From positions 10,053-74,052 of the forward strand of contig CAKXXW010000007.1 of assembly GCA_934378145.1 (NCBI GenBank): a stretch of 64,000 bases of DNA, read 5' to 3'. The position numbers were made by a program, and so were the translations under genes. The notes under the pieces were generated by a model. The model ran no database searches and had not been told where the DNA came from. It saw nothing but the letters and a program-made list of their open reading frames with translations. This DNA comes from an uncultured Eubacteriales bacterium. Its GTDB lineage: Bacteria; Bacillota; Clostridia; Oscillospirales; CAG-272. This document shows, one piece after another, positions 24,545-64,000 of this stretch; position 1 is the stretch's first letter; each line of letters opens with the position of its first letter.

Positions 24545-24582
24545 AAAGCCGTTTGCGGATCCCGCGAACGGCTTTTATTTTT
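24545..24582 (+). terminator. rpsT rho-independent terminator
   Basis: The stem aaaagccgtttgcgg-atc-ccgcgaacggctttt is followed by atttttg. Confidence 0.75.
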
Positions 24583-25891: not shown

Positions 25892-25895
25892 AGTC

Positions 25896-25917
25896 AGCCG
25901 ACCCGAATGGGTCGGCT
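25896..25917. terminator. Bidirectional terminator hairpin between the orphan gene and asd
   Basis: The stem agccgaccc-gaat-gggtcggct has A/T-rich runs on both sides. Confidence 0.6.
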
Positions 25918-25925
25918 ACTTTATT

Positions 25926-39179: not shown

Positions 39180-39290
39180 CCGTATAAAGCGGGATGCAGA
39201 ACGGTGACCGCGTCGGGTATCCCCGACTTCGTCCGGACGGCAACTCCCCGTCCCTCCGGCACTTCACGCCATCGCTCTTACTCTTTTACG
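39180..39290 (-). promoter_or_regulatory. THF (tetrahydrofolate) riboswitch (Rfam RF01831)
   Basis: The minus strand reads aaagAGUAAGagcgauGGCGUGAAGUGccggaGGGAcgg...ggaCGAAGucgg...ccgACGCGGucaccguucUGCAUCCCGCUuua. The conserved AGAGUAG, GCGUG.AGUG, GGGA, CGAAG, GCGCGG-like and UGCAUCCGCU blocks are present. A terminator-like stem and U-run follow at about 39127-39165. Confidence 0.75.
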
Positions 39291-42393: not shown

Positions 42394-42394
42394 A

Positions 42395-43174: not shown

Positions 43175-43194
43175 AGTTCCCTTCCTCCGAAGGA

Positions 43195-43941
43195 TCAGCC
43201 TTCGCCGTTCTCCTTCCTGAAGCTCAGTATCGCGTCGCGGTCGGCGCGGGTGAATTCCCTCGTCCGGTTCTTCGACGCGTAGTCGTAAAGGCAAAGAGTC
43301 CCGATAGCCTCCTCGTCGTAGTTCACCTCGCCGCCTCCGGCGTACCTTATGTCAAGGTAGACCGCCAGCGTCAGCTTATCATCTATATCTATGCCGTCAA
43401 AGATGAATTTCCTGTAATTGTAGAGGTTCTTTTTGTCCTTCTTCATCTCCGATGGATGATAGCGCGTCTCGGAAACGCTCTTCGGGTTCTCCTTCGCGCT
43501 GAGGTCATTGTCGCTGTCATCGTCGGGCGTAAGGTCTGTACTTATCGCCACCGTGACATCGAAGACATCGGCGTCGCGGTCGGGGACCTCATCGAGTCCG
43601 AGATCCTTCGCCACCGAGCGAAGGGTGCTGTTGTTGTACCGCACGACCACCTGAAGCTGATGCGCCTCGGGAATGAACGCTACCTGCGATACCGAAAAGT
43701 ATCCCGCGTTCTTCTCGCCGCGCGTGATGTCGTTCTGCCCCTGATAAAACATATAGAGGCTCCCGTCCTCACTCGCATCATATGCCGCAACTGTGTTTTT
43801 ATTTACCATAATGGTCTTCATTCCCGACGGATCACCCGAGGAGAGCATCCTCCAGATGATGAATCCCGTTACCGAGAAAACAAGCACTATTCCGAGGTAT
43901 TTGAGTACCCTTCCGGCGATACGCCAGCCTCTTTTTGCCAT
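43195..43941 (-). CDS. Hypothetical N-terminally anchored membrane protein
   Basis: 248 aa with a single TM helix (LKYLGIVLVFSVTGFIIW). It is tightly packed between araB and cysE. I recognise no motif. Confidence 0.55.
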   Translation of the reverse strand: MAKRGWRIAGRVLKYLGIVLVFSVTGFIIWRMLSSGDPSGMKTIMVNKNTVAAYDASEDGSLYMFYQGQNDITRGEKNAGYFSVSQVAFIPEAHQLQVVVRYNNSTLRSVAKDLGLDEVPDRDADVFDVTVAISTDLTPDDDSDNDLSAKENPKSVSETRYHPSEMKKDKKNLYNYRKFIFDGIDIDDKLTLAVYLDIRYAGGGEVNYDEEAIGTLCLYDYASKNRTREFTRADRDAILSFRKENGEG

Positions 43942-48939: not shown

Positions 48940-49209
48940 ATGAAAAACAGAACATCGCGCACAAGGCTGTTTCTTTCGGGGCTGAATAACCTCTCGCGCA
49001 GATCCGTGCTGATACTGCTCATAGGTCTGCCGACGGTCGCCATCGCCTCGCTCGCCCTTCTTCCCGACCTTATTTACATAAGCGCTAACTATCACGACTA
49101 CGCCGAGCTTATCTACCCCGATTACTTCGAGCATATAGCAATGACCCTGCTGATCGTGATCGGCGGCGCGCTCTTTTTCGACATTGCCGAAAAGAAGGAC
49201 ATTTATTAA
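48940..49209 (+). CDS. Small hypothetical membrane protein (89 aa, 2 TM helices)
   Basis: The ORF has its own promoter-like signal, a weak AAGGAT RBS, two hydrophobic helices and a strong terminator directly after the stop. Confidence 0.45.
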   Translation: MKNRTSRTRLFLSGLNNLSRRSVLILLIGLPTVAIASLALLPDLIYISANYHDYAELIYPDYFEHIAMTLLIVIGGALFFDIAEKKDIY

Positions 49210-49251
49210 AATATCCCCCGCACCTATCGGTGCGGGGGATATTTTGCTTTT
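49209..49251. terminator. Bidirectional rho-independent terminator (end of the large ABC operon)
   Basis: The stem aaatatcccccgcacc-tatc-ggtgcgggggatattt is followed by tgcttttt. Confidence 0.8.
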
Positions 49252-49261: not shown

Positions 49262-50344
49262 TCAATCTGCGGTAAGACCGGAGCGTTCGATACCCTGTAC
49301 CAGGAACTTCTGGCAGAATATATAAACGACGACCAGCGGCGCGATTATCATAAGTCCGCAGGTATTCCTTATCGCCGCCTCATAGAGGTTCTTGCCGGCG
49401 GCATAGTCCTCTGCTTTCAACGCGAGCGACGCGGGTATACCGACTATGTTCGACAGCAGTTTCGTCTTCGTCGAAGTGAAGAACATTCCGGTATAGTCTA
49501 TATCGGTCCACTGCCACGAGAACGAGAAGAGGAATACCGTTATCATCATCGGCACCGAAAGCGGCAGGATGATGCTGATAAATGTCCTTATCGTTCCCGA
49601 ACCGTCGATGTACGCCGATTCCTCAAGCTCATCGGGAACTCCGCGGAAGAACTGCCTCAGAAGGAAGATATAAAGTCCGTTCTTGAACGCAAGTCCCGCA
49701 GCCGAGAGCAGTATGAGCGGGATATAGGTGTTGTTGATGTTCACACCGTAGTAGAGATCCTCAAGACCCGCCATTCCGAGCAGGGTGAAGAGTCCGGGAC
49801 CGTCTACGAGCGACGAGATGGGGCCTCTTATATCGAAGTTTCCGAAGAAGCTCACGATAGAGCTGTAAAGTGTTCTGTAAGGGATTATCATCGTCAGTAT
49901 GACGGCGAGGAAGACATACTTTGCACCCTTGAACTTGAACTTTGCAAGTCCGTAGCCGATAAGGCAGCAGCTCAGCGTCTGGATAACTGCGCAGGCGACC
50001 GACAGCATAAATGTGTTGAGGAACGCCTCGCTGTATCCCAGCTCGTTGAATATCGCCGTATAGGTGTCAAAGGTGAAGTGCTTCGGTATAATAAGTACCG
50101 TGACATCGACGAAATCCTCGGGCGACATTACCGAACCCGCGATCTTCGTGATGAAGGGGTAGATCACGACATACGCGATACCTATCAGAAGTATAAGCCT
50201 GAAGAGGTACCAGCCCACCTTCTTTAAGAAGAAGAAGGAGAGATATTTTGCCTTGAGCCGCTGAGAGAGAGGCGCACGGTCGAATTCGACCTTTACCTTC
50301 TTATGCGGATCGCGGTATGAATTTGAATTCATTGTTGCATCCAT
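49262..50344 (-). CDS. Carbohydrate-type ABC transporter permease (second pair, MalG-like) with an N-terminal extension
   Basis: 360 aa and polytopic. The EAA-loop motif is EESAYIDGSGTIRTFISIILPLSVP. Confidence 0.85.
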   Translation of the reverse strand: MDATMNSNSYRDPHKKVKVEFDRAPLSQRLKAKYLSFFFLKKVGWYLFRLILLIGIAYVVIYPFITKIAGSVMSPEDFVDVTVLIIPKHFTFDTYTAIFNELGYSEAFLNTFMLSVACAVIQTLSCCLIGYGLAKFKFKGAKYVFLAVILTMIIPYRTLYSSIVSFFGNFDIRGPISSLVDGPGLFTLLGMAGLEDLYYGVNINNTYIPLILLSAAGLAFKNGLYIFLLRQFFRGVPDELEESAYIDGSGTIRTFISIILPLSVPMMITVFLFSFSWQWTDIDYTGMFFTSTKTKLLSNIVGIPASLALKAEDYAAGKNLYEAAIRNTCGLMIIAPLVVVYIFCQKFLVQGIERSGLTAD

Positions 50345-50361
50345 TTCTTTTCTCTCCTTTC

Positions 50362-51348
50362 TCAGTCATTCCGTCTTTGGTAGAACACGAAGGCGGAGCA
50401 TATCGCCGCGATGATACCGACCATTGCTATTACGATAAGGAAGTACATCCACGCCATTGCCGTACTCGTTCCCTTTCCGTCGGGCTGCAGATACTCGTTT
50501 GAGATAAACTTCATTATCGTATTTGAATCTGTCGTAAATGAGTCTATGACCGTATATACCGCGTTGACGAGGATCATAGGACTTATCATCGGGAATGTGA
50601 TCTTCCAGAAAGTCTCCCACGAGGTCGCGCCGTCTATCTGGCACGATTCGTAGATCGTAGGCGAGATCGACTGAAGTCCGGCAAGGAATATCAGCATCTG
50701 AACGCCCGAGCGGTTGACTATCTGGAATATCCTGTTGACCCAGTCGGCAACTATCTCCGCCAACTCGGATCCGACCGCCATTCCCGAGAATAGTGCCTGA
50801 ATGTCCATCGCCGAGGCTATCTGATCCGTAGTGCTCGCCTCCGTACCGTCCGAGATACCTTCATCCATGTATTCATCAAGGATGTTCGCACTGTTGATCG
50901 ATTCCATGATACCCGTCGAAAGGATAACCGGTATGAAGAATATCGCACGGAAGAATGCTCTTCCCGCCATCTTCTGGTTCAGAAGGACCGCCATAAAGAG
51001 CGAGAAGATTATTATCGCGGGGATCTCGAAGATCATATCTCCGATACCCGTGACAAGCGTCTGCACGAACTTCGGATTTACGAACAGCGCCTTACGGTAG
51101 AACTCGAAGCCGACCCACTCAAGGGTGTAGCCTCCGCCGGCAAGTGTCTCCATCGTGAAGAAGCTCAGTTTTATCGACTGCAGAACTATGGGAAAATAAA
51201 TGAAGAGAAATCCGACAACGAACGGAGCGACGAATATCCAACCGGCACGCGCCTTGCGCTTATCAAGCGAGGCATGACCGCGTTTTTTCTTCTTGGCTCC
51301 GGCATTTTTCTTTGTTTCGGTGCCGTTCATCTTAATGTTTTCAGTCAT
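50362..51348 (-). CDS. Carbohydrate-type ABC transporter permease (second pair, MalF-like)
   Basis: 328 aa. The EAA-loop motif is YESCQIDGATSWETFWKITFPMISP. Confidence 0.85.
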   Translation of the reverse strand: MTENIKMNGTETKKNAGAKKKKRGHASLDKRKARAGWIFVAPFVVGFLFIYFPIVLQSIKLSFFTMETLAGGGYTLEWVGFEFYRKALFVNPKFVQTLVTGIGDMIFEIPAIIIFSLFMAVLLNQKMAGRAFFRAIFFIPVILSTGIMESINSANILDEYMDEGISDGTEASTTDQIASAMDIQALFSGMAVGSELAEIVADWVNRIFQIVNRSGVQMLIFLAGLQSISPTIYESCQIDGATSWETFWKITFPMISPMILVNAVYTVIDSFTTDSNTIMKFISNEYLQPDGKGTSTAMAWMYFLIVIAMVGIIAAICSAFVFYQRRND

Positions 51349-51367
51349 TGTCTTTGCTTCTCCTTTC

Positions 51368-54300
51368 TCAGTGATTTATAACCTTGTAGCCGTATGCGGG
51401 GATCGTGTACTCGACTCCGTTATAGGTCACGGTTATTGCGAAGGAATTGTAGTTGAGGATGAAGGTACGGTATGCCTTGTTGTCATCGCCGTCCTTACCG
51501 CCGTAGGTCACCGCCACGATGGATCCGTCGGAGGAGGTGTACTTTGTCGACTCGATGACGGTGTTATTGTGCTTCTTCGTATTGAGCGTCGCATCGAAGA
51601 GGTCCTGCGCCTTTGTGTTGTTCGTGATCTCAAAATTCTCGTCTATAAGCTCCTGCTCAAGGGCGGATGCGCGGATCTGCGCGAGGAGAGCGTCTGCCTT
51701 TTCAAGCATCGCACTGTACTTGTCGCAGAGTGCCTTGAGATCATTGTACTTCCCGGCGGCGTAAGCCTTATCCTCTTCGGTCGCGGTCGCATCCGCGTCA
51801 TAGAGGTTCTTCAGCGTTTCGGCGTATTCAAGATCCACGAGCAGCTGCTGGAGAGCTGTCTCAGCGCTGTTGCGGTATCTTGCAAGGTTTCTGTAGCCGT
51901 TATTGTCCTTGAAGGTGAGGAGGCTTTGGCTCAGCGCCTCATTCGCGGCGCGAAGCTCTTCCTCGGCAACCGATTTTCTGTAAGAGTAGATAACAAGGTT
52001 CGCCTTGTACTCTTCCTTCTCCGCCTTGCTCATCGACCAGAAGTCCATGTTCGCCATCGTTTCAAGAGCATTCGCGGATTCGGTGTAGCGCTTCGCGGCG
52101 TCTACCATCTTCTTCCACTCGGCATCAATGACCTTGAGTGCTTCTTCCGAAACATTCAGAGCATTGTTGAGAAGTCTGAGAGCCTCGGTGACCGCATTGC
52201 TGTCGGCATCGACGGTCTCCTGACCGAAGATGATGACCTTCGCCTTCGTAAGCGCCTCATTGTAGGTCAGTTTGCGAAGCTCGTCGTAATCCTTCTCGAG
52301 GGCGGCAAGGTTATCGCTCGCCTTCTTCGTATTGGCTACCGCGGATTCGTAGAACTGCTTTGCGCTCTGCTTCTCGATAGCGGTCGCGGTAGGATCGGCA
52401 AGGATCTCCTCGTACTTCTCCTTGAGCGACTTCGTAGCCGCTTCTGCGAGGCTCACCGAGTTCTTCATAGTCGAGATGCTCGATTTGATGGAGGATACCG
52501 CGCTGTCGATCTTCGAGATGTAGGTCCTGTAGGTCGCGGAGGCTTCGGTAGCCTTTGCGCTCTTGATAAGGTAATCGGCGGTCTTATTAACCGCGTCGAT
52601 CATCTCGGCGCTCGCACCGAAGAGTCCGTCTACCTCGGTCTTGATATAACCGTCAATGGCGGTTATGAGATCGTTATTTGCCTTGGCGGCAAGCTGTTCG
52701 CTGTATGCCTTCTCGACAGCCTCGAACTCGGTCTTGTGCGTGGAGGCGTTTCTCGCGGCGTCGAGGTCCGCCTGCGCCGTCGTCATAACGGTAAGTGCGG
52801 TCTCGTATGCGGTCTTAGCCGTATTGTATGCGGCTTCCTCAAGTCCGGTCTTGTCAAATACTTCCTTGGCGGCGTCGTAGGTCGTCTTCGCTGCCTCAAG
52901 CCCGGTCGTTGCCTTGCTGAGGGCATCCGCAAGAGCCGTGATCTCTTTCGCGGTCCTGATAGTATCCGAACCGGCAACGGCGTTGTAAGCGGCAGCAACC
53001 GTGTTGTAGTTTTCGTCGGCTGCTTTCTTCTCAAGAGCGAATTTGTTCTCGTTGTAAGCCTTCAGTGCAGCTTCCGATTTGGTTAAGAGAACTTGGTATT
53101 CGGCGTATCCCGGTGCGGCGGCGCTGACTGCTGCCTTCGCATCGCTAAGCTCGGAAGCGAGCTTTGCAAGCGTCGCATATGCCGTATCGGTGTTCGCTGC
53201 GACAGCCGCGGCAACGGCGTCGGCGGCAGCCTTTGCGGCATTTCTGTCGGCTTCGGGAAGCGCGTCGTATTCAGCCTTCCTGTCATCCGCGGTCTTGCGG
53301 GCGGAGGTCGCGCTGTCCTTGTTGGAATCGCTCGGGTTCACTCCCGCAAGAGCTTCTGCGGCTTCGGCATCGGCGTTTGCCTGCTCATAAGTCGCGAGCT
53401 TTGCAAGAGCATCCTTGAGCGCGGCATTGCTGCCGGCGTAAGTATCGTAGGTCTTCTTGAGTTCCGCATAGTAGGACGCTATCTTAGCCTTGTAGTCATA
53501 GAAAGCGTTGTTGTAAAGCGTTTCGCTCTCTTTCGCGGCGCTGACTTTCTTTATCGCCGTGTACTTTGCCTCGGAAAGGGCTATGGCGTTTGCAAGGTCG
53601 GCTTCCGAAATGCCGGCTGCGAGAGCCGCATTCGCGGTATTCGTCCTGTTTGCGACAGCCTGTGCAAGCCTCTTTATATTATCGGTGGTTTCGGTAACGG
53701 CTTTGTCGTAAGTCGACTTTGTAGTGTTGTACACAGCCTCGGCGTCGGTCGCCTTGAAGGAAGCGAGGACATTTTCGGTCACGCTCTCGGCTACTTCGGA
53801 TATGATCGCACGGTCAGCCTCGTCCGCTGTAACGGTCAGAGATGCGCTCTCGTTTCCGAGACCGTCGGCGACGGCATCAATGATCTCCGCGGCGGCGGCT
53901 GCCTTCGCGGCTGCCTCTTCGGCGGTGCTGAAGTATGTACCGGCGTTGGCGACAAGTCCGGCAGCCTCGGCTGCTCCGGCATTCGCGGCGGCGTTCTTCA
54001 GCTTGGTCGCGATATCATTCACCTTAGCGGTGATCTCTGCTTTCTTTGCCTCGTCGGTGACACCGACAAGGAGGACATCGGTCGCTTCCCTGATCGCGGC
54101 ATCGACCGCACTCTTTATTCTGCTTTCTATCGAGGAAGCTGCATCAGCCTCGGCTTTGTTATATCCGGTGACGCTGTAAACAGCTTTCTGTGCGTCGTTC
54201 GCAGCCTTGAGCGCCTTTTCGGACGCCTTCGCGAGATCGGCGCAGATATCGACATAGCTCTTGTCGATAAGAGCCGCGTGCTTTGCCGCGACATTGATGT

Positions 54301-57300
54301 ATGCCGCGACGCGGGCAAGCTCGGCCTCGGTCGCCTTTGCCTGCGTCATAGGAGTCTTTCTGAGAGCAAGTGCCTCTGCCAGTTCCTTTCTCGCGGCTGC
54401 GGCTGCCTCTTCGGCTGCCTTAAGCTCTTCCTCTTTCCTCTTGTTCTCCTCGTCCTCTATCACCTCATCGGGATCGGGTACGCGGTTTCCTATAAGGAAT
54501 TCGTGGTCGATTATGAGCTTTGTCTGAAGGTCGCTCAGAAGGTCGTTCAGCTCGACATACATATCGACAAGGTCGTCTCTCCATATGTCGTATCTGACCG
54601 AGTAATGCTCGCTGAGTCTGAAATCATCCTTCAGCTTCTGGGTGTTCTGATAGGATATTACGAAGTAAAGTCCGGCACCGTTCTCGATAGCCTTCAGGAA
54701 GGCGTACTCTATATCGCCCTCTTCATTGATAGGCGTACCGGAGAACTGGAGGTAACCGTGAAGCACTACACCGAGGAAGGGTACCGCATTGCTCGAATCG
54801 TTGTAACGGCTCGAATTCAGCGGCATATTCACGATGTAGTCGGCATATCTCCATGTGTAGGCATTTCCGCCGCTCGTCATTATCTTAAGTGCGTCTCCGG
54901 CGGAGTTGACCGTAAGGCTGAGCTTTCTCAGCGCGTCGATCGTATATTCCTTCGAGTCCTCGCGGTTGAGCGGATCGTCTTCATCGAAATCCGAGTTGAG
55001 GTCGGTTCCGAGAGTCGCTACCGAGATGCCCGTCGGGTCGTACTTGAGGTAATTCGAGAGCAGCTTGGTGATGAATTTGTCAAATCTTGATGCGGAGATG
55101 GCAAGCTCGTAGTAACCGACATATGCCTGATAGGTCGCGCTGAAGTAGCGGCGCATGGTATAGCGGTTATCTATCGTCTTTACGGCGTCCGTCTTGAGGT
55201 CTACGCCGTCAAAGTTCGCCTGATTCTCCGAATATACGAAGTCGAAGTCGGGGAAGACACCGAAGTTCTTCTCCTTCGAGTATTTCACGAGATCGGCAAA
55301 GCCCGATGCTCCTCCGACAGCCTTTTCCCAGTTGAGGTTATAAGGCATGACCGAGTAGAGACCGCCGTTCGCGTATCCCGTGAGCTTGAAGTTGATGTTT
55401 GCGGCTGTATTTACATTGTCCTCATCGGCGGATGTAGTGTTTCCGCTGTTGACAAGCTCTTCGGTCTTCTTCTTTATATCGCCCGAAAGCTCGTTGTACA
55501 TGGTCTTGACATCCTCAAAGGTGGTGAGAGGAGTCATGACATCGACCGGGATCGAGAAGATCTTCTCGGTCGTCATAAGCGCGCCGTAGGTCTCGATATA
55601 AAGCGGAATGTTTGCCGATACATCGCTGTCGGTGAGCCTTGTCAGGACATTCTGCTTTTCAAGGTAATCGCGGTAAGCGACCGCCATACCCATCCACGAA
55701 CATTCGTAGTACCTTGAAAGGTTGTTTTCCCTCGCAAGGTTGTCGTCCGAGAGCATAACATATCTGACCTTGTAGTTTCCGACATATTTTCTCTCCGAAA
55801 CGACGGTCATTTCCTTGTTTGAGCCGACCGAGATCGCATCAGCCATATTGTAGCTGTCCTTAGGTCTCGGATAGAAGCTCATCTTGACCATATTGTAGAT
55901 GCTCTTCGCGCTCATATGAACGGTCGTCAGTCTTGCAAGGGCGTCGCCCTCCTCGATTATGGCGAGGAAGCCGTGGTCCTCATCGACATCCTTCGTTCCG
56001 TAGACCGCGGGTGTCTTCACGGTTCCGTCCTCATTGAGGACTTCCTGCTTTATGACCTTCGTGTAGTCGGTCTTCTTGCCCGACCAATGCTCGACGATAC
56101 CGAAAACAGGGACCCTTATGGTTTCCTGATGCTGACCCGAGAGAGTATGGTACGCGAAGTCGGTACCGTATATCTGTGCATAAGCATCGTGGTGAGAACC
56201 GTCATTGAGCTGCTGGAAGTCGAACAGTGCGCCCGAACCGTCCGGGAAGAAGGTATAGCCGTCTCCGCCGTCGGACCAGTCACCGTCGTTCCTGCCGGCT
56301 CCCATATACGGGAGCATCTCGATATTCTCGAGCAGGTAGATCGACTCGTCGAAGCGTATTCCGTTTGCCGGCATACGGACGACAAGGCCGTCTTCGTCAA
56401 CGGTATATTCAAGTGCGACCTTGAAGAGTACGGGCGACTTTGCGGTTGCCTCATACTGGGTAAGATCGTGGTCGCTGTCAAGCTCCTCGTAGGTGTAGGT
56501 GGAGGCATAATCCTTGATATACGACTCGACCTTTCTCATCTGCGAGGTGTTATCCTGCACCTTCTTGTCTATGACATAGATAGGCATCGTCTTGACTATC
56601 GGATACATAGCGAGAAGGGATGAACGGCCCGCGTCGGTCTTTTCCTTATCAAGGTTCTTCTCGTTGTAGTACGAGGTGAACTTTATGATAGCGAAACATT
56701 CATACTCGAATCCGTAGTCGGACTTCTTGAGCTTTTCGGCTACAAGAGGCTCGCCCTCCATATCGAAGGTCGGATCGAGGAACTTTATTACATAGTCGTA
56801 ATATCCGTATTCCTCGCCCTCTTCGGCACCCTGATTAAGCGCGTCCTGATACTTGAATACCTTTTGGTTATTGATAAGAGTGTAGTTGTTCTGGTTCGAG
56901 GTATCGATCACGATAATGTCTTCGGCATTTGCGGTCTCGCGCATTTCGCGAAGGAGCCTCTTCTCGAATCTGTCCTTGCTTATGCGCATGGGGACGAGCA
57001 TTCTCGCCTCTTCGCGTCCGATGGAGTACTCGATACGGATACCGTTCTTTATGTACTCGACATTTATCTGATTTCTCGCCGCAGCCTCAAGGCTGGAGTA
57101 AAGATCCTTCGGGTTGTTGTTATCGATATAAGTGATAACTATCTGCGACAGAAGCTGCTTCTTGACGCTGATCGCGGTGGTCTTGCTCTTCTTTCCCGCC
57201 GTTACCGCGGTGTAGGAAGCATCCGAAAGATCCCACGGGTTGGTGAAGAGAAGCTCACCGGTAGCGATCTTTTCGGTCGCGACCTCGCCGCTTATCGGGT

Positions 57301-57559
57301 CGACATACATTCTGTACCCGTTCTTCTCCCACATGAGGTCCATGCTCGCGACCTTTTCCTGCGGAGTACTGAACTTCGAGGATTCGAGGTTCTTCTCGAT
57401 CGTGACATCATAGTCGATCGCTTCGGAATTGAACTTGCTTGACCCTTCGGCGTTTCCGTTCTCATCGTAAAGGGTGAAAGCACCCGCTCCGACAGTCACA
57501 GCACCGCACAGCATCAGCACAGCCAAGAGAGCCGACAGTATTTTGATTCCTTTTTTCAT
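51368..57559 (-). CDS. Giant secreted protein (2,063 aa): DUF5696-like N-terminal region, a roughly 940-aa Ala-rich helical insert, and a small C-terminal beta domain
   Basis: The ATG at 57559 is 5 nt after GGAGGG. Signal peptide MKKGIKILSALLAVLMLCGAVTVGAGA. The frame is continuous and there is a 13-nt gap to the upstream gene. The DUF5696 assignment is from memory of that family and its Yip1/ABC gene context. It has not been searched. Confidence 0.85.
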   Translation of the reverse strand: MKKGIKILSALLAVLMLCGAVTVGAGAFTLYDENGNAEGSSKFNSEAIDYDVTIEKNLESSKFSTPQEKVASMDLMWEKNGYRMYVDPISGEVATEKIATGELLFTNPWDLSDASYTAVTAGKKSKTTAISVKKQLLSQIVITYIDNNNPKDLYSSLEAAARNQINVEYIKNGIRIEYSIGREEARMLVPMRISKDRFEKRLLREMRETANAEDIIVIDTSNQNNYTLINNQKVFKYQDALNQGAEEGEEYGYYDYVIKFLDPTFDMEGEPLVAEKLKKSDYGFEYECFAIIKFTSYYNEKNLDKEKTDAGRSSLLAMYPIVKTMPIYVIDKKVQDNTSQMRKVESYIKDYASTYTYEELDSDHDLTQYEATAKSPVLFKVALEYTVDEDGLVVRMPANGIRFDESIYLLENIEMLPYMGAGRNDGDWSDGGDGYTFFPDGSGALFDFQQLNDGSHHDAYAQIYGTDFAYHTLSGQHQETIRVPVFGIVEHWSGKKTDYTKVIKQEVLNEDGTVKTPAVYGTKDVDEDHGFLAIIEEGDALARLTTVHMSAKSIYNMVKMSFYPRPKDSYNMADAISVGSNKEMTVVSERKYVGNYKVRYVMLSDDNLARENNLSRYYECSWMGMAVAYRDYLEKQNVLTRLTDSDVSANIPLYIETYGALMTTEKIFSIPVDVMTPLTTFEDVKTMYNELSGDIKKKTEELVNSGNTTSADEDNVNTAANINFKLTGYANGGLYSVMPYNLNWEKAVGGASGFADLVKYSKEKNFGVFPDFDFVYSENQANFDGVDLKTDAVKTIDNRYTMRRYFSATYQAYVGYYELAISASRFDKFITKLLSNYLKYDPTGISVATLGTDLNSDFDEDDPLNREDSKEYTIDALRKLSLTVNSAGDALKIMTSGGNAYTWRYADYIVNMPLNSSRYNDSSNAVPFLGVVLHGYLQFSGTPINEEGDIEYAFLKAIENGAGLYFVISYQNTQKLKDDFRLSEHYSVRYDIWRDDLVDMYVELNDLLSDLQTKLIIDHEFLIGNRVPDPDEVIEDEENKRKEEELKAAEEAAAAARKELAEALALRKTPMTQAKATEAELARVAAYINVAAKHAALIDKSYVDICADLAKASEKALKAANDAQKAVYSVTGYNKAEADAASSIESRIKSAVDAAIREATDVLLVGVTDEAKKAEITAKVNDIATKLKNAAANAGAAEAAGLVANAGTYFSTAEEAAAKAAAAAEIIDAVADGLGNESASLTVTADEADRAIISEVAESVTENVLASFKATDAEAVYNTTKSTYDKAVTETTDNIKRLAQAVANRTNTANAALAAGISEADLANAIALSEAKYTAIKKVSAAKESETLYNNAFYDYKAKIASYYAELKKTYDTYAGSNAALKDALAKLATYEQANADAEAAEALAGVNPSDSNKDSATSARKTADDRKAEYDALPEADRNAAKAAADAVAAAVAANTDTAYATLAKLASELSDAKAAVSAAAPGYAEYQVLLTKSEAALKAYNENKFALEKKAADENYNTVAAAYNAVAGSDTIRTAKEITALADALSKATTGLEAAKTTYDAAKEVFDKTGLEEAAYNTAKTAYETALTVMTTAQADLDAARNASTHKTEFEAVEKAYSEQLAAKANNDLITAIDGYIKTEVDGLFGASAEMIDAVNKTADYLIKSAKATEASATYRTYISKIDSAVSSIKSSISTMKNSVSLAEAATKSLKEKYEEILADPTATAIEKQSAKQFYESAVANTKKASDNLAALEKDYDELRKLTYNEALTKAKVIIFGQETVDADSNAVTEALRLLNNALNVSEEALKVIDAEWKKMVDAAKRYTESANALETMANMDFWSMSKAEKEEYKANLVIYSYRKSVAEEELRAANEALSQSLLTFKDNNGYRNLARYRNSAETALQQLLVDLEYAETLKNLYDADATATEEDKAYAAGKYNDLKALCDKYSAMLEKADALLAQIRASALEQELIDENFEITNNTKAQDLFDATLNTKKHNNTVIESTKYTSSDGSIVAVTYGGKDGDDNKAYRTFILNYNSFAITVTYNGVEYTIPAYGYKVINH

Positions 57560-57572
57560 TTTATCCCTCCGA

Positions 57573-59768
57573 CTATGCATTGTACCTTATCTCGGTTATG
57601 ATGTTGGTCACAAAGCTTACCACCTTGCCGAGAAGTGTTACGAACAGTACGCTGATGAACATTATGAAGATTATTCCGACGAGCGTACCGAGCGTCGTTA
57701 TAAGATTCTTTCCGATGGAGTAGTCGTGCGTCACCATCATTCCGGTGAAGATCAGGAGTCCCGCCCAGATAAGTCCGACCGTTGTGATGAAGTTCAGAAC
57801 ATCAATCTCCGATTTGACCATGAAGTTCGATGCGAGCGTTGTCGGGATTATCGTGAGTATGACCGGAAGCAGTGAGTATCCCACGGCTATCACGATATCC
57901 TTGAAGCTGCCCTCGCCGTCAAAGAGCGTCGTAAGGCACCAGTTGGCTATCGCCCAGAGCATCAGCGGAAGTACCACCGTTACTGCCTGGTCAAGGATCG
58001 TCGTATAGACAGTATGCTGATTTACCGAGTAGCCCGAGCCGACCGCCTGGTAGAAATACGCGACGATCGTCAGCAGTATGAAGACTATCGCTGCTCTGAG
58101 CGAGCCTCGCTTCTCGTGCTTCAGATCCCAGAAGCCGTCGAACGGGTGGAAGATGACATGGAAGCCGTAGAGCAACTCTTCCTTGAAGTTCCTCTTGCCT
58201 CCCGCGACAGCCGCGCGGCTGTTGACCTTCGTTGCGTACTTCATAAAGAAGACGCATCCGACGATGATCGCCGCCGCTCCGAGCGGGATGAGAAGGAGCC
58301 ACTTGCTGATCCATGCCTTACGGATCTCTTCGTACGAGCTTGAGTAGTTCGAGGTATCGTATGCAGCCTTGAAGTACTCTATCGACTCCTCGTACTGACC
58401 GTTTCTGTACATCGACTGACCTATACCGATATAAGCCGCGTCGTAGTTCGAATTTCTCTTGAGTATCTCGAACCAGTCATCGACCGCCGTATCGTACTGA
58501 CGGGCGTTCTGATGCTCGAGAGCGCGGATAAGCGTCTTTCCGTACTCGGTCTGACGGTAGACCGTGAAGGTCTTGCTGTTCTTGTCGAGCAGGAGCATCT
58601 TGTAGTTCTGATTTCCTTCGGCGTCGTAATTGCGCTGATAGGTCATACCGACGAGCAGGTTTATGTTTCCAAGCTGTCCGCCGCTCTTCTGTCCGAAGGC
58701 GAAGAGCAGGTTTCCGTCGAAGTCATAGGTAAATACCCTTGATCTCTTGCTGTCGGCGATCGACCATGTCTTTTCGGGGCCGACTGCGGCGTCGATTATC
58801 GAGGAAGCACCGACGTCGTCTCCCGTACCGGTACCGACCTGAACGTCACCAGAAGGCGGCCAGAAGCCGTTTCGTCTCATGATCTCCTCGCCCGCGGGGT
58901 TGAGCAGCTTGACGGGAGCGTAGTCACCGCTCTTTGACTTCTTCTTTATCGCGTTCTGCTGAGTCTTTTCGGCTATCTTATTTGTCGTGACATATACGAA
59001 GCCGTCATCGTTTATCGCAATGTTGTTGAATTCGGTCGGGACGACGCTCGCCGTCTGATCTCTCTGTTCCTGAGTCTGGAAGCGTCTCCAGATTATGTCC
59101 CATGTCGAGAGCGAGGATTTCTGCGCGCCGATGAAGCCCGTGAAATCTCCGTCGCGGGTCATCATAATGACTCCCTGGTTCGTTGTCGAGGATACGACAT
59201 AGAGTCTGTCGTACTGGTCGACTGCGACCGCGACCGGTTTATAGACCGAGTCATTCTCGAAAAGCTCGTCTTCGGGTGCCTTGATTATGTCGATGAAGTT
59301 GAAATCACGGTCAAAGGTGACTATCCTGTTCTTTTCGGTATCGCAGACAAAGATCGTATCATCGGTGATGAACACGCCCTTCGGACCCGAAAGTGTATCG
59401 GGGTTACCCTGATCGTTGTCGAAGTCCTTGATTATATGCTTCAGCTTGAAGTTACTGTCAAGAACGACGATACGGCTGTAAAGACCGTCTTTCGAATCGG
59501 CTGCCGAATCGGCTATATATACCCAGCCGTTCTCGTCGACCTCTATGTCCGCCGGTTCCTTGAGAGGCTTAAGCTCGCTCGTGTCACCCGTAAGTCCGAT
59601 ATAATCCGAATCTATCTCTTTCTCGGGAACATAGGCATCGGGCGAGTTCAGCGGGAAGCCGCCGAGCGCGTAGGTATAGGTCTGATATGACTTGGCTCCT
59701 ACCGGAAGCGAGCAAAGTATTATTATAATGAAGATCACTGCCAGCACGGCACTTATTCTTTTTACCAT
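57573..59768 (-). CDS. Fusion protein: signal peptide, NHL-repeat beta-propeller, TPR-like segment and a C-terminal Yip1-type multi-pass membrane domain
   Basis: 731 aa. NHL-like repeats include GWVYIADSA...RIVVLDSNF, IFVCDTEKNRIVTFDRDF and RLYVVSSTTNQGVIMMTRDGDF. The TPR-like segment reads IGIGQSMYRNGQYEESIEYFKAAYD. About six hydrophobic helices occupy the last roughly 250 aa. Confidence 0.75.
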   Translation of the reverse strand: MVKRISAVLAVIFIIIILCSLPVGAKSYQTYTYALGGFPLNSPDAYVPEKEIDSDYIGLTGDTSELKPLKEPADIEVDENGWVYIADSAADSKDGLYSRIVVLDSNFKLKHIIKDFDNDQGNPDTLSGPKGVFITDDTIFVCDTEKNRIVTFDRDFNFIDIIKAPEDELFENDSVYKPVAVAVDQYDRLYVVSSTTNQGVIMMTRDGDFTGFIGAQKSSLSTWDIIWRRFQTQEQRDQTASVVPTEFNNIAINDDGFVYVTTNKIAEKTQQNAIKKKSKSGDYAPVKLLNPAGEEIMRRNGFWPPSGDVQVGTGTGDDVGASSIIDAAVGPEKTWSIADSKRSRVFTYDFDGNLLFAFGQKSGGQLGNINLLVGMTYQRNYDAEGNQNYKMLLLDKNSKTFTVYRQTEYGKTLIRALEHQNARQYDTAVDDWFEILKRNSNYDAAYIGIGQSMYRNGQYEESIEYFKAAYDTSNYSSSYEEIRKAWISKWLLLIPLGAAAIIVGCVFFMKYATKVNSRAAVAGGKRNFKEELLYGFHVIFHPFDGFWDLKHEKRGSLRAAIVFILLTIVAYFYQAVGSGYSVNQHTVYTTILDQAVTVVLPLMLWAIANWCLTTLFDGEGSFKDIVIAVGYSLLPVILTIIPTTLASNFMVKSEIDVLNFITTVGLIWAGLLIFTGMMVTHDYSIGKNLITTLGTLVGIIFIMFISVLFVTLLGKVVSFVTNIITEIRYNA

Positions 59769-59783
59769 ACTCTGCCTCCTTTT

Positions 59784-60656
59784 TTAATCCTTCATACCGC
59801 TGGATCCCATAGTCTCGATGATGTTCGACTGAGTTACTACGAAAACGAGTATCGGAACCATCATCATGATGACCTGAGCCGCGGCGCCGGCGCCGGCACG
59901 CTTGATACCGCCGGCGACGATCTGCTGAATTGCGTAGTTAAATGATTTGAGCTGCTCGGACTGAATGTATATCGACTGTCCCGCGTTCCAGAGTCCCTGG
60001 AAACAGTAAATGATAAGCGTCAGCCATGCCGGTTTGACCATAGGCATCGCTATCATCCAGAAGGTCCTGAATTCGCTCGCGCCGTCAAGTCGTGCCGATT
60101 CAAGCACCGACTCGGACACCTGCGAATCCATGAACTGCTTCATAAGGTAAAGACCGAGAGTCGTACAGAAGGCGGGGACTATCTTTGCAAGATAGGTATC
60201 GACCCAACCGAGGCGGCTCATGATGAAGTAGTTCGTGATAGATGTGACCGTAGAGTGGAACATGAGGGACATTCTTATCGTCTTGAACATCCACTTTCTT
60301 CCGGGGAAGTGGATCTTCGAGAAGGCGTATGCCGCCATCGACGACAGGAAGAGGTTTCCTACCGTTCCGACGACCGAAACGAGAACCGTGTTGAATATGT
60401 ATCTCGAGAAAGGCACCCACGATACATTCATCTGTACGAACAGATCCTGATAGTTCTTTATCGTCGGTCTGTAAACTATGAATCTCGGTGGGAACATCCA
60501 AAGCTCGTCAAGAGGTTTGAATGACTGCGCGATCGCGTACCACATAGGCAGGAACATGAAGGCACCGAGGATTATGAGGATAAGAGTGATGCCTATGTCG
60601 CCTCCCGCAGAGCGGCTGAGAACGACTCTGTGTTTTCTTGTTCTTAATCTTGCCAT
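59784..60656 (-). CDS. Carbohydrate-type ABC transporter permease (first pair, MalG-like)
   Basis: 290 aa. The EAA-loop motif is LESARLDGASEFRTFWMIAMPMVKP. Confidence 0.9.
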   Translation of the reverse strand: MARLRTRKHRVVLSRSAGGDIGITLILIILGAFMFLPMWYAIAQSFKPLDELWMFPPRFIVYRPTIKNYQDLFVQMNVSWVPFSRYIFNTVLVSVVGTVGNLFLSSMAAYAFSKIHFPGRKWMFKTIRMSLMFHSTVTSITNYFIMSRLGWVDTYLAKIVPAFCTTLGLYLMKQFMDSQVSESVLESARLDGASEFRTFWMIAMPMVKPAWLTLIIYCFQGLWNAGQSIYIQSEQLKSFNYAIQQIVAGGIKRAGAGAAAQVIMMMVPILVFVVTQSNIIETMGSSGMKD

Positions 60657-60657
60657 A

Positions 60658-61605
60658 TCACTTACCTACCTTCGAAATCAGTTTCTTGACCAGCAGGTTC
60701 GCCGATATCATGATAGCGAACAGAACCACAGCGATCGTTGACGAATAGCCTATTTCAAATCTCGTGCTTCCGTAGTCGTTCAGGTGGTGCATTATCGTAT
60801 GCGCCGCGTAATCGACCGACGGGAAGCCGCAGAGTGCGGTAACGACCGATCCGAAGCCGAACGAGCTTGTGATCGACATGATGGCGCCGAACATAAGCTG
60901 AGGCTTCATACTCGGAAGGGTTATGTACCAAAGCTCCTGCCAACGGTTTCTGATACCGTCGACGGCTCCCGCCTCATAGAGAGAGCGGTTGATGCCCTGC
61001 AGACCGGCGATGAACGAAAGGAACGCCGTTCCGAGTGACTGCCAGAGAGCAACTATGATACAAAGAGGCATTACATATTCGGCTTTTTCAAACCAGTTGA
61101 TCTCCTCGGTGATTATCTGGAGCTTCATCAGCCAGGCGTTCGCCCAACCGTAAGCGTCTCCCGAGAAGAGGGTCTTCCAAATGAGGTAGACCTCACCGGA
61201 AATCGACGGCGCGTAGAAGACCAGGGTGACAAGCGATCTGATCTTCGGCGACAGCTCGTTTATGAACCACGCGACCATAAGTGACATAATGTAGGACGCG
61301 GGTCCGACTATGCACGCGAATATAAAGGTGTTCTTGCAGGCTATGAGGAATATGTCATCATCGAGGAAGAGGCGCGCATAGTTGTCGAGGAAGACGAAAT
61401 TCGGCGTCTGCAACATATTGAAGTCTGTGAAACTGAATATCACCGAGAGCAACACAGGGCATACCGTGAAGAGCGTGAAGAGGATCACGAACGGCGCGAT
61501 CATCACATATCCCGCCCAGTTACGCTTCATTTCCTTCAGCGTCCACTGGAACTTCGACATATCCTTGCGTGCCACAGCTTTTTTCTTTGTCGTATTCTGT
61601 GACAT
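60658..61605 (-). CDS. Carbohydrate-type ABC transporter permease (first pair, MalF/LplB-like)
   Basis: 315 aa. The EAA-loop motif is YEAGAVDGIRNRWQELWYITLPSMKP. There is a 1-nt gap to the next permease gene. Confidence 0.9.
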   Translation of the reverse strand: MSQNTTKKKAVARKDMSKFQWTLKEMKRNWAGYVMIAPFVILFTLFTVCPVLLSVIFSFTDFNMLQTPNFVFLDNYARLFLDDDIFLIACKNTFIFACIVGPASYIMSLMVAWFINELSPKIRSLVTLVFYAPSISGEVYLIWKTLFSGDAYGWANAWLMKLQIITEEINWFEKAEYVMPLCIIVALWQSLGTAFLSFIAGLQGINRSLYEAGAVDGIRNRWQELWYITLPSMKPQLMFGAIMSITSSFGFGSVVTALCGFPSVDYAAHTIMHHLNDYGSTRFEIGYSSTIAVVLFAIMISANLLVKKLISKVGK

Positions 61606-61640
61606 AATTATCTCCTTACATCGTTATTTGCGTTGCTCTG

Positions 61641-64000
61641 TCAATAAGATGATCTGTAATCACGCAGAGCCTCCGCCGCGGTGTCAATACAGTCCGCGAC
61701 CTCATAAAGATCCGAATACTGCGTTTTGCGAAGTCCCTCTGAAGCCGCTTCGAGTGCCTCGATATGCTCTATCGAAACTCTCGCCTTCTGCGATTCAAGG
61801 TTCGCTATCGCCGTTCTGAGGGCGTCTATCTCAGCCTTGTACTGAGCCTTTGCGCTGTCGCTGAGTCCGTCGAGCTTTGCCTCGGCCTGAGCGATCCTCT
61901 TGCTCGCAAGGGTCTCGCCGATCTCAAGGGTCTCAAGTCCGAACTCATCGCGCTTTCTCGTTATTTCCTTATTTATAGTATTGATATACTTAAGGAGCGA
62001 GGTCGTCGGGTTCGCGTTCTTATCGTAAGCCGCAAGGAATGCGAACTTCGTGTAACGGGCTATGATGTACGATCCGGGATAGTTGGGTATCGACGCAAGG
62101 TTGTTGAACTGTGCCGAGAGCTGCTTATACTCATCGGTGGTCCATGGCATACTTTCGAGAGCCGTGATATTGGCTGTCGCGTGCTTTGCCGAGTCACCGA
62201 GGATAGCGACCATCTCGTTCGAGTAGTTGACCTGGCACTCGGGACCGACATGCCACTTCATGAACGACCACGCCGCCTCGACATTCTCGCATCCGTTTAT
62301 CATCGAGATAGCCGATACCGTCGCGACCGCGACATTGTTGATGCTCTCAACGACCTTCTTACCGTCCTCGTAGACATATCTGCCTGCCTCGTCGGTCTTG
62401 TAGGTCGCGATACCGGGGACCGGATAGAAGGACCAGAGTCCGCGGATCTCGGTCGCGAAAACGATGAGCTGGTTATATGTTCCGCTGTATCCCGCGATAC
62501 CTATCGGCATCTCACCCGTTCTGAAACGGTTCGAGAAGTCGTACTTGTACGGGAAGGAGTACATTGTAAAGAGGTTGCACATATAATCGAAGGAGTCAAG
62601 CGCTATATTGGAGTCAAGGTTGATCCTCATACCGTCGTCGGCGAAGAGCTTGCTTCCCTTCTGATAGAGGAAGATCTTGTAGTCGTTCGACATACCGATC
62701 TGCATGTTCTTCGATTCAAGCGTCTGGATAGCCGCCTGAACATCGTCCCACGACTTCGGGATCTCTATTCCGAGGTTCGCAAGGATGTCGTTTCTGACGA
62801 ACATCATCGAGAACGACTGGGTCTCCGGCAGTCCGTAGTAGTGCATGATGTTGTCGGCGTCGGGAAGTCCGAGCGTGTACATCGCAGCCTCGTTGAACTG
62901 CACCTTGTCGTTCTTTATCTTATTGCCGTTTTCGTCGAGCTGATACTTGTAAGTATATGTCCTTCCGCTGAAGGTCGAGCCGGTCTCATAGAGCCAGCCC
63001 TCGGTCGTGAAGCTGTAACGCGTCTTGCCCGTGCGGTCGGTGCATTCGCCCGAGCCGTCGGCGTTGTACTTTATCGTGTACATCGCCACGCCGTCGGTGG
63101 ACATAGCCTTGATCTCCTTGCCCGCCTCGCCGGTAATGATGTAATTCTCGGCTCTGAGATCTTCGACATAATCGCCGATCGTCTTATGCTCACGCAGGTA
63201 GGTATCGGTAAGCTCGTAGAATCCTTCGCAGTTCTCGATATTCATGAGAGCGCCGCGGATAGCGTAGTTTATGATGTTATCCTCGCTGACGCCGATATAG
63301 ACATCGGGGCCGGACTGAGCAAGGATCGAAGGCAGCAGCGAGCCGGCTGCAACGAGCTTCAGGTTGACAAGGTGTCCGGTCTGCGGCGTGAAGTCGTTGT
63401 TGATAAGGCTTCTGATGACCTGTGTCTGGTCACGGCCGTAAGCGAGCCAGACCTCGACAGCCTCTTCTTCCTCGCCCGCATTGGTGGCACCCATACGGTT
63501 GTAGTTACGCCAGAAGCTGTTCCAGAACTTCAAAAACTCGTGACCTATCGTCTGGAAGAAATTCGCCTTGGCTGCGGGAAGATCTTCTCCGGGAGCCTGA
63601 ACGATGAAGTAGTCGAGCTGGAGCGGCTGGGTCTTGTTGTCGTTGATCCAGGTGCCGAGGGTACCTATGTATGTCTTGAGCTGATCGAGGTTCTTTGCGA
63701 CATTGTCCTCGTCGATGCCCATCTCGTAAAGAAGTCTTACTATCTTATCGAGCGTCGCGGCGTTCGAGCTGCTCTGCCCCGCGATGTTCTTAAGCTCGTT
63801 CGAGATGTCCTCAAGTCTTCTCGACTCGACGATGAGTCCCTGCATGGTATCGGGCATGATACGGTAGAAGCCGTAGTCACGGTACTGGTCGGGATCCGCT
63901 CCGGTGAGCTTCAGTATATTAAGGTAGTAATTGTTGATGTTGGTAAGCGAAGTGCTGACCTCGCTGACTATCGAGCCCATATCGCCGAGAGAGACCTCAA
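61641..64000 (-). CDS. Oversized extracellular solute-binding protein (5' end beyond the right window edge)
   Basis: The reverse frame stays open past 63980 to the window edge, so the protein is longer than 786 aa. The central region has a family-1 SBP character (VEVWLAYGRDQTQVIRSLINNDFTPQTG...). Extra helical segments lie at both ends. Confidence 0.7.
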   Translation of the reverse strand, partial: EVSLGDMGSIVSEVSTSLTNINNYYLNILKLTGADPDQYRDYGFYRIMPDTMQGLIVESRRLEDISNELKNIAGQSSSNAATLDKIVRLLYEMGIDEDNVAKNLDQLKTYIGTLGTWINDNKTQPLQLDYFIVQAPGEDLPAAKANFFQTIGHEFLKFWNSFWRNYNRMGATNAGEEEEAVEVWLAYGRDQTQVIRSLINNDFTPQTGHLVNLKLVAAGSLLPSILAQSGPDVYIGVSEDNIINYAIRGALMNIENCEGFYELTDTYLREHKTIGDYVEDLRAENYIITGEAGKEIKAMSTDGVAMYTIKYNADGSGECTDRTGKTRYSFTTEGWLYETGSTFSGRTYTYKYQLDENGNKIKNDKVQFNEAAMYTLGLPDADNIMHYYGLPETQSFSMMFVRNDILANLGIEIPKSWDDVQAAIQTLESKNMQIGMSNDYKIFLYQKGSKLFADDGMRINLDSNIALDSFDYMCNLFTMYSFPYKYDFSNRFRTGEMPIGIAGYSGTYNQLIVFATEIRGLWSFYPVPGIATYKTDEAGRYVYEDGKKVVESINNVAVATVSAISMINGCENVEAAWSFMKWHVGPECQVNYSNEMVAILGDSAKHATANITALESMPWTTDEYKQLSAQFNNLASIPNYPGSYIIARYTKFAFLAAYDKNANPTTSLLKYINTINKEITRKRDEFGLETLEIGETLASKRIAQAEAKLDGLSDSAKAQYKAEIDALRTAIANLESQKARVSIEHIEALEAASEGLRKTQYSDLYEVADCIDTAAEALRDYRSSY

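Follow-up and report, generated by a model that had tools for sequence, protein, structure and literature searches.

A conserved seven-gene cassette of gut Clostridia: a candidate operon for surface glycan capture, cleavage and dual import

We describe a cassette of seven genes in DNA from an uncultured Eubacteriales bacterium (contig CAKXXW010000007.1, positions 10,053 to 74,052; this whole 64-kb stretch is the window referred to below). The genes are consecutive and co-directional on the minus strand (49262-64000) and encode a large solute-binding protein, four permeases of ATP-binding cassette (ABC) importers, a membrane protein combining NHL, TPR and Yip1 domains, and a giant protein of the DUF5696 family. 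In our judgement the cassette is probably an operon for surface glycan capture, alpha-glycosidase-type cleavage and dual ABC import, with the ATPase supplied in trans. Its features are, in gene order:

61641-64000, minus strand: binding-protein gene (gene 1), 3´ part; the C-terminal 785 amino acids lie within the window
60658-61605, minus strand: permease 1 (gene 2), 315 amino acids; UgpA/MalF-type, translocator A
59784-60656, minus strand: permease 2 (gene 3), 290 amino acids; UgpE/MalG-type, translocator A
57573-59768, minus strand: NHL-TPR-Yip1 membrane protein (gene 4), 731 amino acids; Pfam Yip1, TPR_16 and NHL
51368-57559, minus strand: DUF5696 giant protein (gene 5), 2,063 amino acids; Pfam DUF5696
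50362-51348, minus strand: permease 3 (gene 6), 328 amino acids; UgpA/MalF-type, translocator B
49262-50344, minus strand: permease 4 (gene 7), 360 amino acids; UgpE/MalG-type, translocator B
49207-49246, both strands: bidirectional hairpin terminator with an 18-bp stem and a 4-nucleotide loop, from a terminator scan and the sequence

The arrangement is conserved far beyond what chance would allow, and it is that of an old, rigid cassette. Two scans of one genome per GTDB species, which confirmed at least 475 and 342 relatives and from which the best 80 each were kept, together with contig look-ups gave 135 distinct related loci. All seven genes were present in the same order and on the same strand in 107 loci, which is every informative one (107/107); each of the remaining 28 of 135 was cut by a contig or locus end, and its remnant genes stood in the expected order. 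The intergenic gaps were conserved as well, and the 1-nucleotide gap between permeases 1 and 2 was kept in nearly all loci. The order in the 107 loci excludes a strain-specific rearrangement, and the neighbourhood comparison across Clostridia that the original prediction had proposed thus came out in favor of conservation. Median identity to the proteins of the window was 73-74% for permeases 1 and 2, 62% for permease 3 and 57% for permease 4, with 58% for the binding protein, 54% for the NHL-TPR-Yip1 protein and 45% for the DUF5696 region. The loci, all from metagenome-assembled genomes, are labelled Clostridia, Eubacteriales, Oscillospiraceae or 'Ruminococcus sp.', and come from human, ruminant, horse, rabbit and chicken guts and a few digesters; the named homologues among those listed belong to uncultured gut Clostridia of humans and livestock. 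The second scan, which was seeded with the most distant listed relatives, found no cultured host and no simpler arrangement, only the same seven genes in metagenome-assembled genomes.

The giant protein carries Pfam DUF5696 (PF18952) at 392.4 bits, against a cut-off of 25.6 (E = 4.8e-117), and its listed homologues all carry PF18952. Among representatives of 50%-identity clusters, the DUF5696 region has 3,831 relatives at E ≤0.001 and 1,107 at E ≤1e-30. A signal or anchor helix (residues 1-27) and a conserved region (residues 50-371; 57412-56447) are followed by a beta-sandwich and (beta/alpha)8 barrel predicted to resemble those of glycoside hydrolase (GH) family 129 (residues 372-1015; 56446-54515), an Ala-rich helical stalk (residues ~1031-1975; 54469-51635) and a beta module (residues ~2005-2063; 51547-51371).

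The link to GH129 comes from structure prediction. An AlphaFold model of residues 1-1053, built from 50 homologues (predicted local distance difference test score, pLDDT, 76; predicted template-modelling score, pTM, 0.74), has a beta-sandwich at residues ~372-610 and an alternating beta/alpha barrel at residues ~640-1010. In a Foldseek search of the PDB it ranked DagB (5opq; E = 1.7e-20, target template-modelling (TM) score 0.61) and a GH129 enzyme (5wzp; E = 5.7e-20) at the top, with GH31, GH36 and GH101 enzymes next at E ~1e-10, all of which act on alpha-glycosidic bonds. A second, independent model, of a full-length homologue of 1,194 amino acids that is 45% identical and comes from a related locus with the same seven genes (pLDDT 79), gave the same ranking (8rzk, E = 9.7e-21, TM 0.65; 5wzn, TM 0.67). 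Between them, the two models match the GH129 structures (5opq/8rzk and 5wzn/5wzp) at E = 1e-20 to 6e-16 and target TM-scores of 0.61-0.67, and both predict the GH129 three-domain fold. Identity in these structural alignments is only 9-12%, and NagBb and DagB, both in the PDB set, were not matched in sequence at E-values up to 10. DUF5696 is therefore GH129-like in predicted fold and not a GH129 member as CAZy defines one by sequence.

Residue conservation among 39 sequences, down to ~48% identity, agrees with a putative enzymatic function. In NagBb the catalytic pair consists of an Asp nucleophile (D435) and a Glu acid/base (E478), and the corresponding set in DagB is D202/D486/E517. DagB has three domains, a beta-sandwich at the N terminus, a TIM barrel and an immunoglobulin (Ig)-like domain at the C terminus, and requires the sandwich Asp in addition to the barrel Asp and Glu (PMC5698469). 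In DUF5696, D440 and D568 of the sandwich and D868, R866, H934 and E959 of the barrel are invariant, D771 of the barrel is always acidic, and D857 and D859 are present in 38 of the 39 sequences. The two most conserved motifs, [FY]P[DE]FDF and LNSDFDxxxPxNRxD, lie at or just past predicted barrel strands, and their acidic residues are D771, D773, D857, D859 and D868. Acidic residues and motifs conserved in this way in both sandwich and barrel suggest the pattern of an active enzyme. Given the models, DUF5696 probably belongs to the structural class of GH129, GH31, GH36 and GH101 and constitutes a new GH family. The substrates of the enzymes with the nearest folds include alpha-N-acetylgalactosamine (alpha-GalNAc), 3,6-anhydro-alpha-D-galactose, alpha-Gal, alpha-Glc, alpha-Xyl and sulfoquinovose. 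A surface machine that processes a polymer, as the original prediction envisaged, needs an enzyme, and structure prediction has supplied a candidate glycosidase with a GH129-like fold. We found no paper mentioning DUF5696 or PF18952 in a literature search, in keeping with the suggestion that the system is undescribed.

The stalk, with 24% Ala, nearly no Pro or Gly, a hydrophobic period of 3.5 residues and no internal repeats at either the DNA or the protein level, accounts for all of the length variation of the giant protein. Across the loci that length ranges from 936 to 2,063 amino acids (median 1,450), as the stalk goes from almost nothing to ~1,000 amino acids; among loci L001-L083 the lengths look bimodal, at ~1,200-1,500 and ~1,800-2,060 amino acids. 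All listed members of a 68-member 90%-identity cluster have 2,063 amino acids, and the length appears to be fixed within a species. A conserved beta module makes up the final ~60 residues. In two related loci, L004 and L005, the stalk is 68% and 45% identical to that of the window, compared with 90% and 73% for the catalytic part and 84% and 65% for the C-terminal module. The model of the full-length homologue places two strands before the helical bundle and five after it, and its Foldseek alignments to GH129 are longer than those of the first model by approximately the size of the helical insert. From the conserved module behind a fast-evolving stalk, the strands that flank the helices and the lengthened alignments, we infer that the stalk is not a tail, and that it is probably inserted in the C-terminal Ig-like domain of the enzyme as a hairpin-like mast or docking arm. 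Stalk length and binding-protein length are correlated too weakly for interpretation (Spearman 0.31, p = 0.012, with no phylogenetic correction).

The binding protein reaches beyond the window. Its frame is open to base 64000, with no stop upstream of the listed ATG, so the gene is cut by the window edge. The original prediction had held the protein to be larger than the ~786 residues visible, and its full length is indeed 1,302 amino acids, both in L004 and in L160, a locus of the same organism that an exact search for the giant protein located on a contig of 139.6 kb from a human-gut metagenome (Hadza). Pfam recognises SBP_bac_1 at 54.5 bits (cut-off 26) and SBP_bac_8 at 41.8 bits, and SBP_bac_1 above its cut-off combined with a lipoprotein signal identifies a family 1 extracellular solute-binding protein. 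The part inside the window consists of a helical linker, the SBP_bac_1 domain with an insertion of ~110 amino acids, and a coiled-coil-like C-terminal tail of ~110 amino acids. The N-terminal ~517 amino acids beyond the window comprise a signal peptide with an LAGC lipobox and then beta-rich modules resembling carbohydrate-binding modules (CBMs). In both L160 and L004 the protein starts with MKQNLFRRILALVLALSCLAGC, lipobox included (…LSCLAGC). The N-terminal modules of homologues gave only weak matches (GH115_C at 25.3 bits in one homologue, CBM_35 and Golvesin_C), and the N-terminal ~500 amino acids found no sequence relative in the PDB.

The four permeases all qualify as membrane subunits of type I ABC importers, combining a BPD_transp_1 domain above the Pfam cut-off of 26.4 bits (40, 29.7, 38.1 and 50 bits for permeases 1 to 4) with an EAA loop, which reads YEAGAVDG, LESARLDG, YESCQIDG and EESAYIDG, respectively, in the translations. 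By NCBIfam resemblance genes 2 and 6 are UgpA/MalF-like and genes 3 and 7 UgpE/MalG-like; permease 1 most resembles UgpA, and permease 2 resembles UgpE, GlcU and MalG. Their scores against the UgpA/UgpE, MalF/MalG and GlcT/GlcU models are far below the equivalog cut-offs, and NCBIfam placed no protein of the cassette in a named equivalog. The two complete permease pairs and the single binding protein of the original prediction were thus recovered, and they recur in the related loci. Its wording of a duplication of permease pairs is misleading, however: two pairs are present, but permease 3 is only 25% identical to permease 1 and permease 4 only 22% identical to permease 2, so they are ancient paralogues and a recent duplication is ruled out. 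Hydropathy and the translations show one enlarged extracytoplasmic loop in permease 3 (residues ~150-215) and two in permease 4; we can speculate that these loops dock a partner other than a classical binding protein.

An ATPase for these permeases is missing, as had been noted. The operon encodes no MalK-type ATPase, none lies elsewhere in the 64-kb window or beside the 135 related loci, and no LSGGQ motif was found in any frame of the window. A tblastn search with E. coli MalK recovered nothing but generic ABC ATPases of 21-32% identity, which lie several kb from the cassette at a few loci. Neither the operon, nor the window, nor the 135 loci thus provide the two nucleotide-binding subunits of a complete type I ABC importer. 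Shared 'multitask' ATPases are established for Firmicute sugar importers, and the absence of the ATPase from the cassette is ordinary for importers of this kind (PMC7658222, PMC5730181).

Between the permease pairs, next to the 2,063-residue DUF5696 protein, lies the NHL-TPR-Yip1 fusion, for which Pfam agrees with the first reading of the sequence. The Yip1 match scores 62.9 bits (cut-off 28.6) over profile positions 1-172 of 173, and five hydrophobic segments lie at residues 559-714, which makes gene 4 a member of the Yip1 family (PF04893); NHL scores 24.7 bits (cut-off 20) and TPR_16 is also present. In the PDB, the sequence matched consensus TPRs as well as two NHL domains, those of Thin (E = 2.7e-7) and TRIM71. 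The chain begins with a signal or anchor, which is followed by an NHL beta-propeller (residues ~60-400; 59591-58569), TPRs (residues 416-475; 58523-58344), one transmembrane helix (residues 491-509), a basic loop and the five-helix Yip1 domain (residues 536-706; 58163-57651). Hydropathy suggests that the propeller and TPRs are extracellular and the basic loop cytoplasmic. The fusion has more than 3,000 homologues, and those listed share its architecture. A precedent is YknW, which belongs to the Yip1 family and modulates how the ABC transporter YknXYZ is assembled (PMC4887032); a literature search for Yip1 in combination with ABC transporters and binding proteins turned up nothing related.

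The layout of the cassette is consistent with a single transcription unit. The gaps, from gene 1 to gene 7, are 35, 1, 15, 13, 19 and 17 nucleotides, the same values as in the original prediction, and the strong terminator that it placed after the string is the hairpin at 49207-49246, whose 18-bp stem has 9 G-C pairs and starts 15 nucleotides past the last stop codon of the cassette. A ribosome-binding site precedes each of the six genes whose starts fall inside the window (6/6). At five genes it is of the AAGGAG/GGAGG type; permease 2 has only a weak one, which together with the 1-nucleotide gap after permease 1 suggests translational coupling. On the minus strand, no promoter-like or terminator-like match was found in the intergenic gaps, and such matches inside the string were no commoner than in shuffled sequence. 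In L160, an 855-nucleotide non-coding stretch (1157-2010) upstream of the binding-protein gene contains a near-consensus extended -10 promoter (TTGACA-17-TGnTATTAT; 1715-1743), ~270 nucleotides upstream of the start codon. Taken together, the tight gaps, the six ribosome-binding sites, the lack of intergenic signals, the terminal hairpin and the one upstream promoter fit the single transcript that had been considered likely, and none of the internal promoters or terminators that could have split it was seen in the gaps. The cassette also has clear borders. In L160, genes for a RecD2-like helicase and a ComF-like phosphoribosyltransferase lie upstream of it, and nrdR, a DUF5131 gene and eno lie downstream in both L160 and the window; with these flanks on both sides, the cassette consists of exactly seven genes.

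Other signals around the genes deserve mention. The GC-rich leader of ~270 nucleotides in L160 has strong hairpins (e.g. ATCGCCTCCCGGAGTCGCCGGGAGGCGAT) and a GCGGGCTTTTTAT element and could be an attenuator. The leader is conserved in L004 and L005, only partly in L001 and L015, and matches nothing in Rfam. A regulatory leader common to the loci was considered and rejected, as the GC-rich hairpins are kept among close relatives only and 63 loci share just the ribosome-binding site and a -35 box; for L001, L002 and L004, Rfam matched neither the cassette nor the sequence upstream of it. For the giant gene, the start is most likely ATG 57559, which has a GGAGGG ribosome-binding site ahead of it and gives 2,063 amino acids. 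The alternative ATG 57580 lacks such a site, and a start there would run into the upstream gene; an identical protein of 2,063 amino acids is already on record. Two plus-strand open reading frames (ORFs) inside the giant gene (51293-53086, 597 amino acids; 53093-55090, 665 amino acids) look like shadow ORFs, which we rejected as genes because the conserved protein is the minus-strand one. Their translations, with much Arg, Gly, Leu and Val, would mirror the region coding for the Ala-rich stalk, and the AT skew around them goes down to -0.285. The terminal hairpin is common to the end of the cassette and a convergent plus-strand ORF (48940-49209). This ORF encodes a hydrophobic product of 89 amino acids without a Pfam match, and was also called in the same-organism contigs L160 and L161.

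How might the seven proteins act together? We suggest that the 1,302-residue binding protein stays attached to the cell surface, in this organism by its lipobox, where its N-terminal beta-sandwich modules and SBP_bac_1 domain would capture a glycan or its fragments. The exported DUF5696 protein would attack an alpha-linked substrate, either as a retaining alpha-glycosidase or as a related enzyme active on alpha-glycans, with the variable helical stalk in its C-terminal Ig-like domain serving as a spacer or docking arm. Two distinct CUT1-type translocators (permeases 1 and 2, permeases 3 and 4) would then take up the products. The binding protein may deliver these to at least one translocator, and the other may be fed by something else. 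By analogy with other Firmicutes, a shared MsmX/MsmK-type ATPase encoded elsewhere could energise both translocators, and the NHL-TPR-Yip1 protein may be a membrane scaffold that links the extracellular parts to the translocators, much as YknW does for YknXYZ. A bolder version, which we put forward tentatively and with some doubt, is that DUF5696 is a new GH family of alpha-glycan specificity and that the seven proteins make up one surface supercomplex, in which the stalked enzyme and one multi-module binding protein feed two translocators, organised by the NHL-TPR-Yip1 scaffold.

Several observations weigh against a glycan-uptake operon. The TM-scores to GH129 enzymes are moderate, and sequence searches of the PDB did not lead to these enzymes: phmmer with the giant protein returned nothing, a profile of 50 homologues returned only coiled-coil proteins, through the stalk, and a profile of the sandwich and barrel returned only interferon-gamma, a chance match. 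The CBM-like character of the N-terminal modules of the binding protein is read from weak matches and the modules are outside the window, and many homologues of the protein have no lipobox cysteine in their signal peptide, and would therefore be retained at the surface by another route, for example an uncleaved anchor or binding to a partner. The relatives are all metagenome-assembled genomes. Lastly, the flanks differ between loci and consist of housekeeping genes, including alaS (26 loci), suf, nifU and a gene for an RlmI-like methyltransferase; no regulator and no further carbohydrate-active enzyme recurs in them, which is unlike most catabolic sugar loci. The window and L001 also share a hexapeptide-transferase gene followed by cysS downstream of the cassette (40975-43294 and 18245-20396, respectively). 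The shared pair suggests that the wider region is partly syntenic between the two; the proteins of L001 are 59-87% identical to those of the window.

These surroundings would suit a role in envelope maintenance, in which the stalked enzyme would extend into the wall and trim and recycle, or remodel, an alpha-linked wall or capsule glycopolymer of the cell itself while the transporters recover the units. We consider this unlikely, but it has several points in its favor. The surrounding genes belong to the housekeeping core (nrdR, eno, cysS, alaS, suf/nifU), no adjacent regulator was found, the content and order of the cassette are invariant in the 107 loci, permeases 1 and 2 are unusually conserved, and a stalk that varies between lineages and is fixed within a species would fit differences in envelope thickness. 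However, a constitutive-looking promoter and a housekeeping context are compatible with a main nutrient system, and foraging loci typically feature extracellular glycosidases and binding proteins that carry additional beta-sandwich modules. Moreover, a reading of the seven translations turned up neither genes for wall synthesis or wall anchoring nor motifs of that kind (LPXTG, SLH).

If, instead, the glycosidase fold of DUF5696 had turned lectin, the protein would be a stalked module that binds glycans or mediates adhesion without catalysis, and the cassette would combine adhesion or sensing with uptake and without hydrolysis. DUF5696 has no sequence similarity to any active glycosidase, the putative catalytic position D773 varies (D in 34/39 sequences, N in 4 and E in 1), and long, fast-evolving helical stalks are typical of adhesins. 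We nevertheless find this reading improbable, since Asp, Glu, His and Arg residues that stay invariant across sequences 31-60% identical form an active-site pattern rather than a lectin surface, and the closest folds are all enzymes.

Uptake of enzymatically released products, as favored here, also assumes that the seven genes work together. One could regard them as two unrelated neighbors, an importer (genes 1-3) and a Yip1/DUF5696/permease module (genes 4-7), uncoupled and perhaps transcribed separately, given the ancient divergence of the permease pairs (22-25% identity) and the single binding protein for both. This is very unlikely: 107/107 informative loci preserve the order and the short gaps, including those with different flanks and with proteins of just 31-60% identity; the scan showed no promoter or terminator between the genes; and a second translocator would have little purpose by itself if no binding partner came with it. 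That the system exports or assembles a surface polymer is scarcely credible, since the large proteins outside the cell, the membrane scaffold and the housekeeping surroundings would allow it but the cassette has no glycosyltransferase and does have four type I importer subunits (BPD_transp_1, EAA loops) plus a solute-binding protein, an architecture that to our knowledge is known for import only.

A few features elsewhere in the window were recorded in passing. Two riboswitches lie on the minus strand, one for flavin mononucleotide (FMN; 10775-10893, 100.9 bits against a gathering score of 66.2) and one for tetrahydrofolate (THF; 39185-39287, 78.1 bits against 36), the latter near a folC-like Mur-ligase gene on the same strand (37176-38450). 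Directly upstream of rpoB/rpoC (15677-23860), the stretch 24001-26000 has a G+C content of 0.40 compared with ~0.54 elsewhere, and contains two ORFs without a Pfam match (24000-24659, minus strand; 25055-25891, plus strand); an inserted segment and a regulatory region rich in A and T are both conceivable here.

Several hundred species-level genomes carry the cassette, and the predicted similarity in fold to GH129-type alpha-glycosidases provides an enzymatic hypothesis that can be tested for DUF5696, a family with no function assigned so far. Among ABC importers it is unusual to find one giant binding protein combined with two translocators and a Yip1 scaffold, and the cassette could reveal how Gram-positive bacteria organise glycan processing at the surface without an outer membrane. 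Should the supercomplex exist, it would be a Gram-positive counterpart of the Sus-like 'utilisome' and a hallmark of a large clade of uncultured gut Clostridia. The cassette could also serve as a marker for the clade, and its substrate, once identified, could guide cultivation.

Among known systems, the closest to the giant protein are the GH129 and GH129-like enzymes NagBb, an alpha-N-acetylgalactosaminidase of Bifidobacterium bifidum (5wzn), and DagB, a 3,6-anhydro-D-galactosidase of Zobellia galactanivorans (5opq/8rzk), with GH31, GH36 and GH101 at a greater distance. DUF5696 shares with NagBb and DagB its predicted three-domain plan, and its invariant Asp residues in the sandwich and acidic residues in the barrel region may correspond to those of DagB (PMC5698469). 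Unlike these enzymes, DUF5696 has an extra conserved N-terminal region of ~320 amino acids, a signal or anchor helix and a helical insertion of 0 to ~1,000 amino acids before the last beta strands, and it is obligately partnered in the genome with transporters and a Yip1 protein. The Yip1 protein brings to mind YknWXYZ of Bacillus, where a protein of this family is likewise encoded with, and presumed to work with, an ABC transporter (PMC4887032). However, YknYZ, which works with a membrane fusion protein, is an exporter of the MacB type, whereas the transporters of the cassette are type I importers, and the Yip1 protein described here carries a 500-residue extracellular extension with an NHL propeller and TPRs.

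The transporters themselves share with MalEFGK2 of E. coli the family of their membrane subunits, the heterodimeric MalF/MalG-like pairing, the EAA loops and the dependence on a binding protein, and differ in that malK is absent in cis, that there are two translocators, that the binding protein has several modules and that the permeases score far under the MalF/MalG equivalog cut-offs. They also resemble the Firmicute CUT1 importers that use MsmX/MsmK, such as AraNPQ, GanSPQ and YtcQP-YteP of B. subtilis, which also do without an ATPase gene of their own, and the binding protein, UgpA/UgpE-type pairs and glycosidase-like protein have parallels in these importers and in Gram-positive polysaccharide utilisation loci. 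Measured against what defines such a locus, the cassette provides the transporter, a hydrolase at the level of fold prediction only, and no regulator in the flanks examined. It further departs from the Firmicute CUT1 systems in its two permease pairs per binding protein, the size of that protein (about three times the usual), a glycosidase-like protein in no recognised GH family, the invariant Yip1 fusion, and an order that is rigid in more than 100 loci from species-representative genomes. The known part is a locus for a binding-protein-dependent sugar importer with an extracellular glycosidase and an ATPase in trans; what is new is the fold-level assignment of DUF5696, the stalk insertion, and the invariant union of a giant binding protein, two translocators and a Yip1 scaffold.

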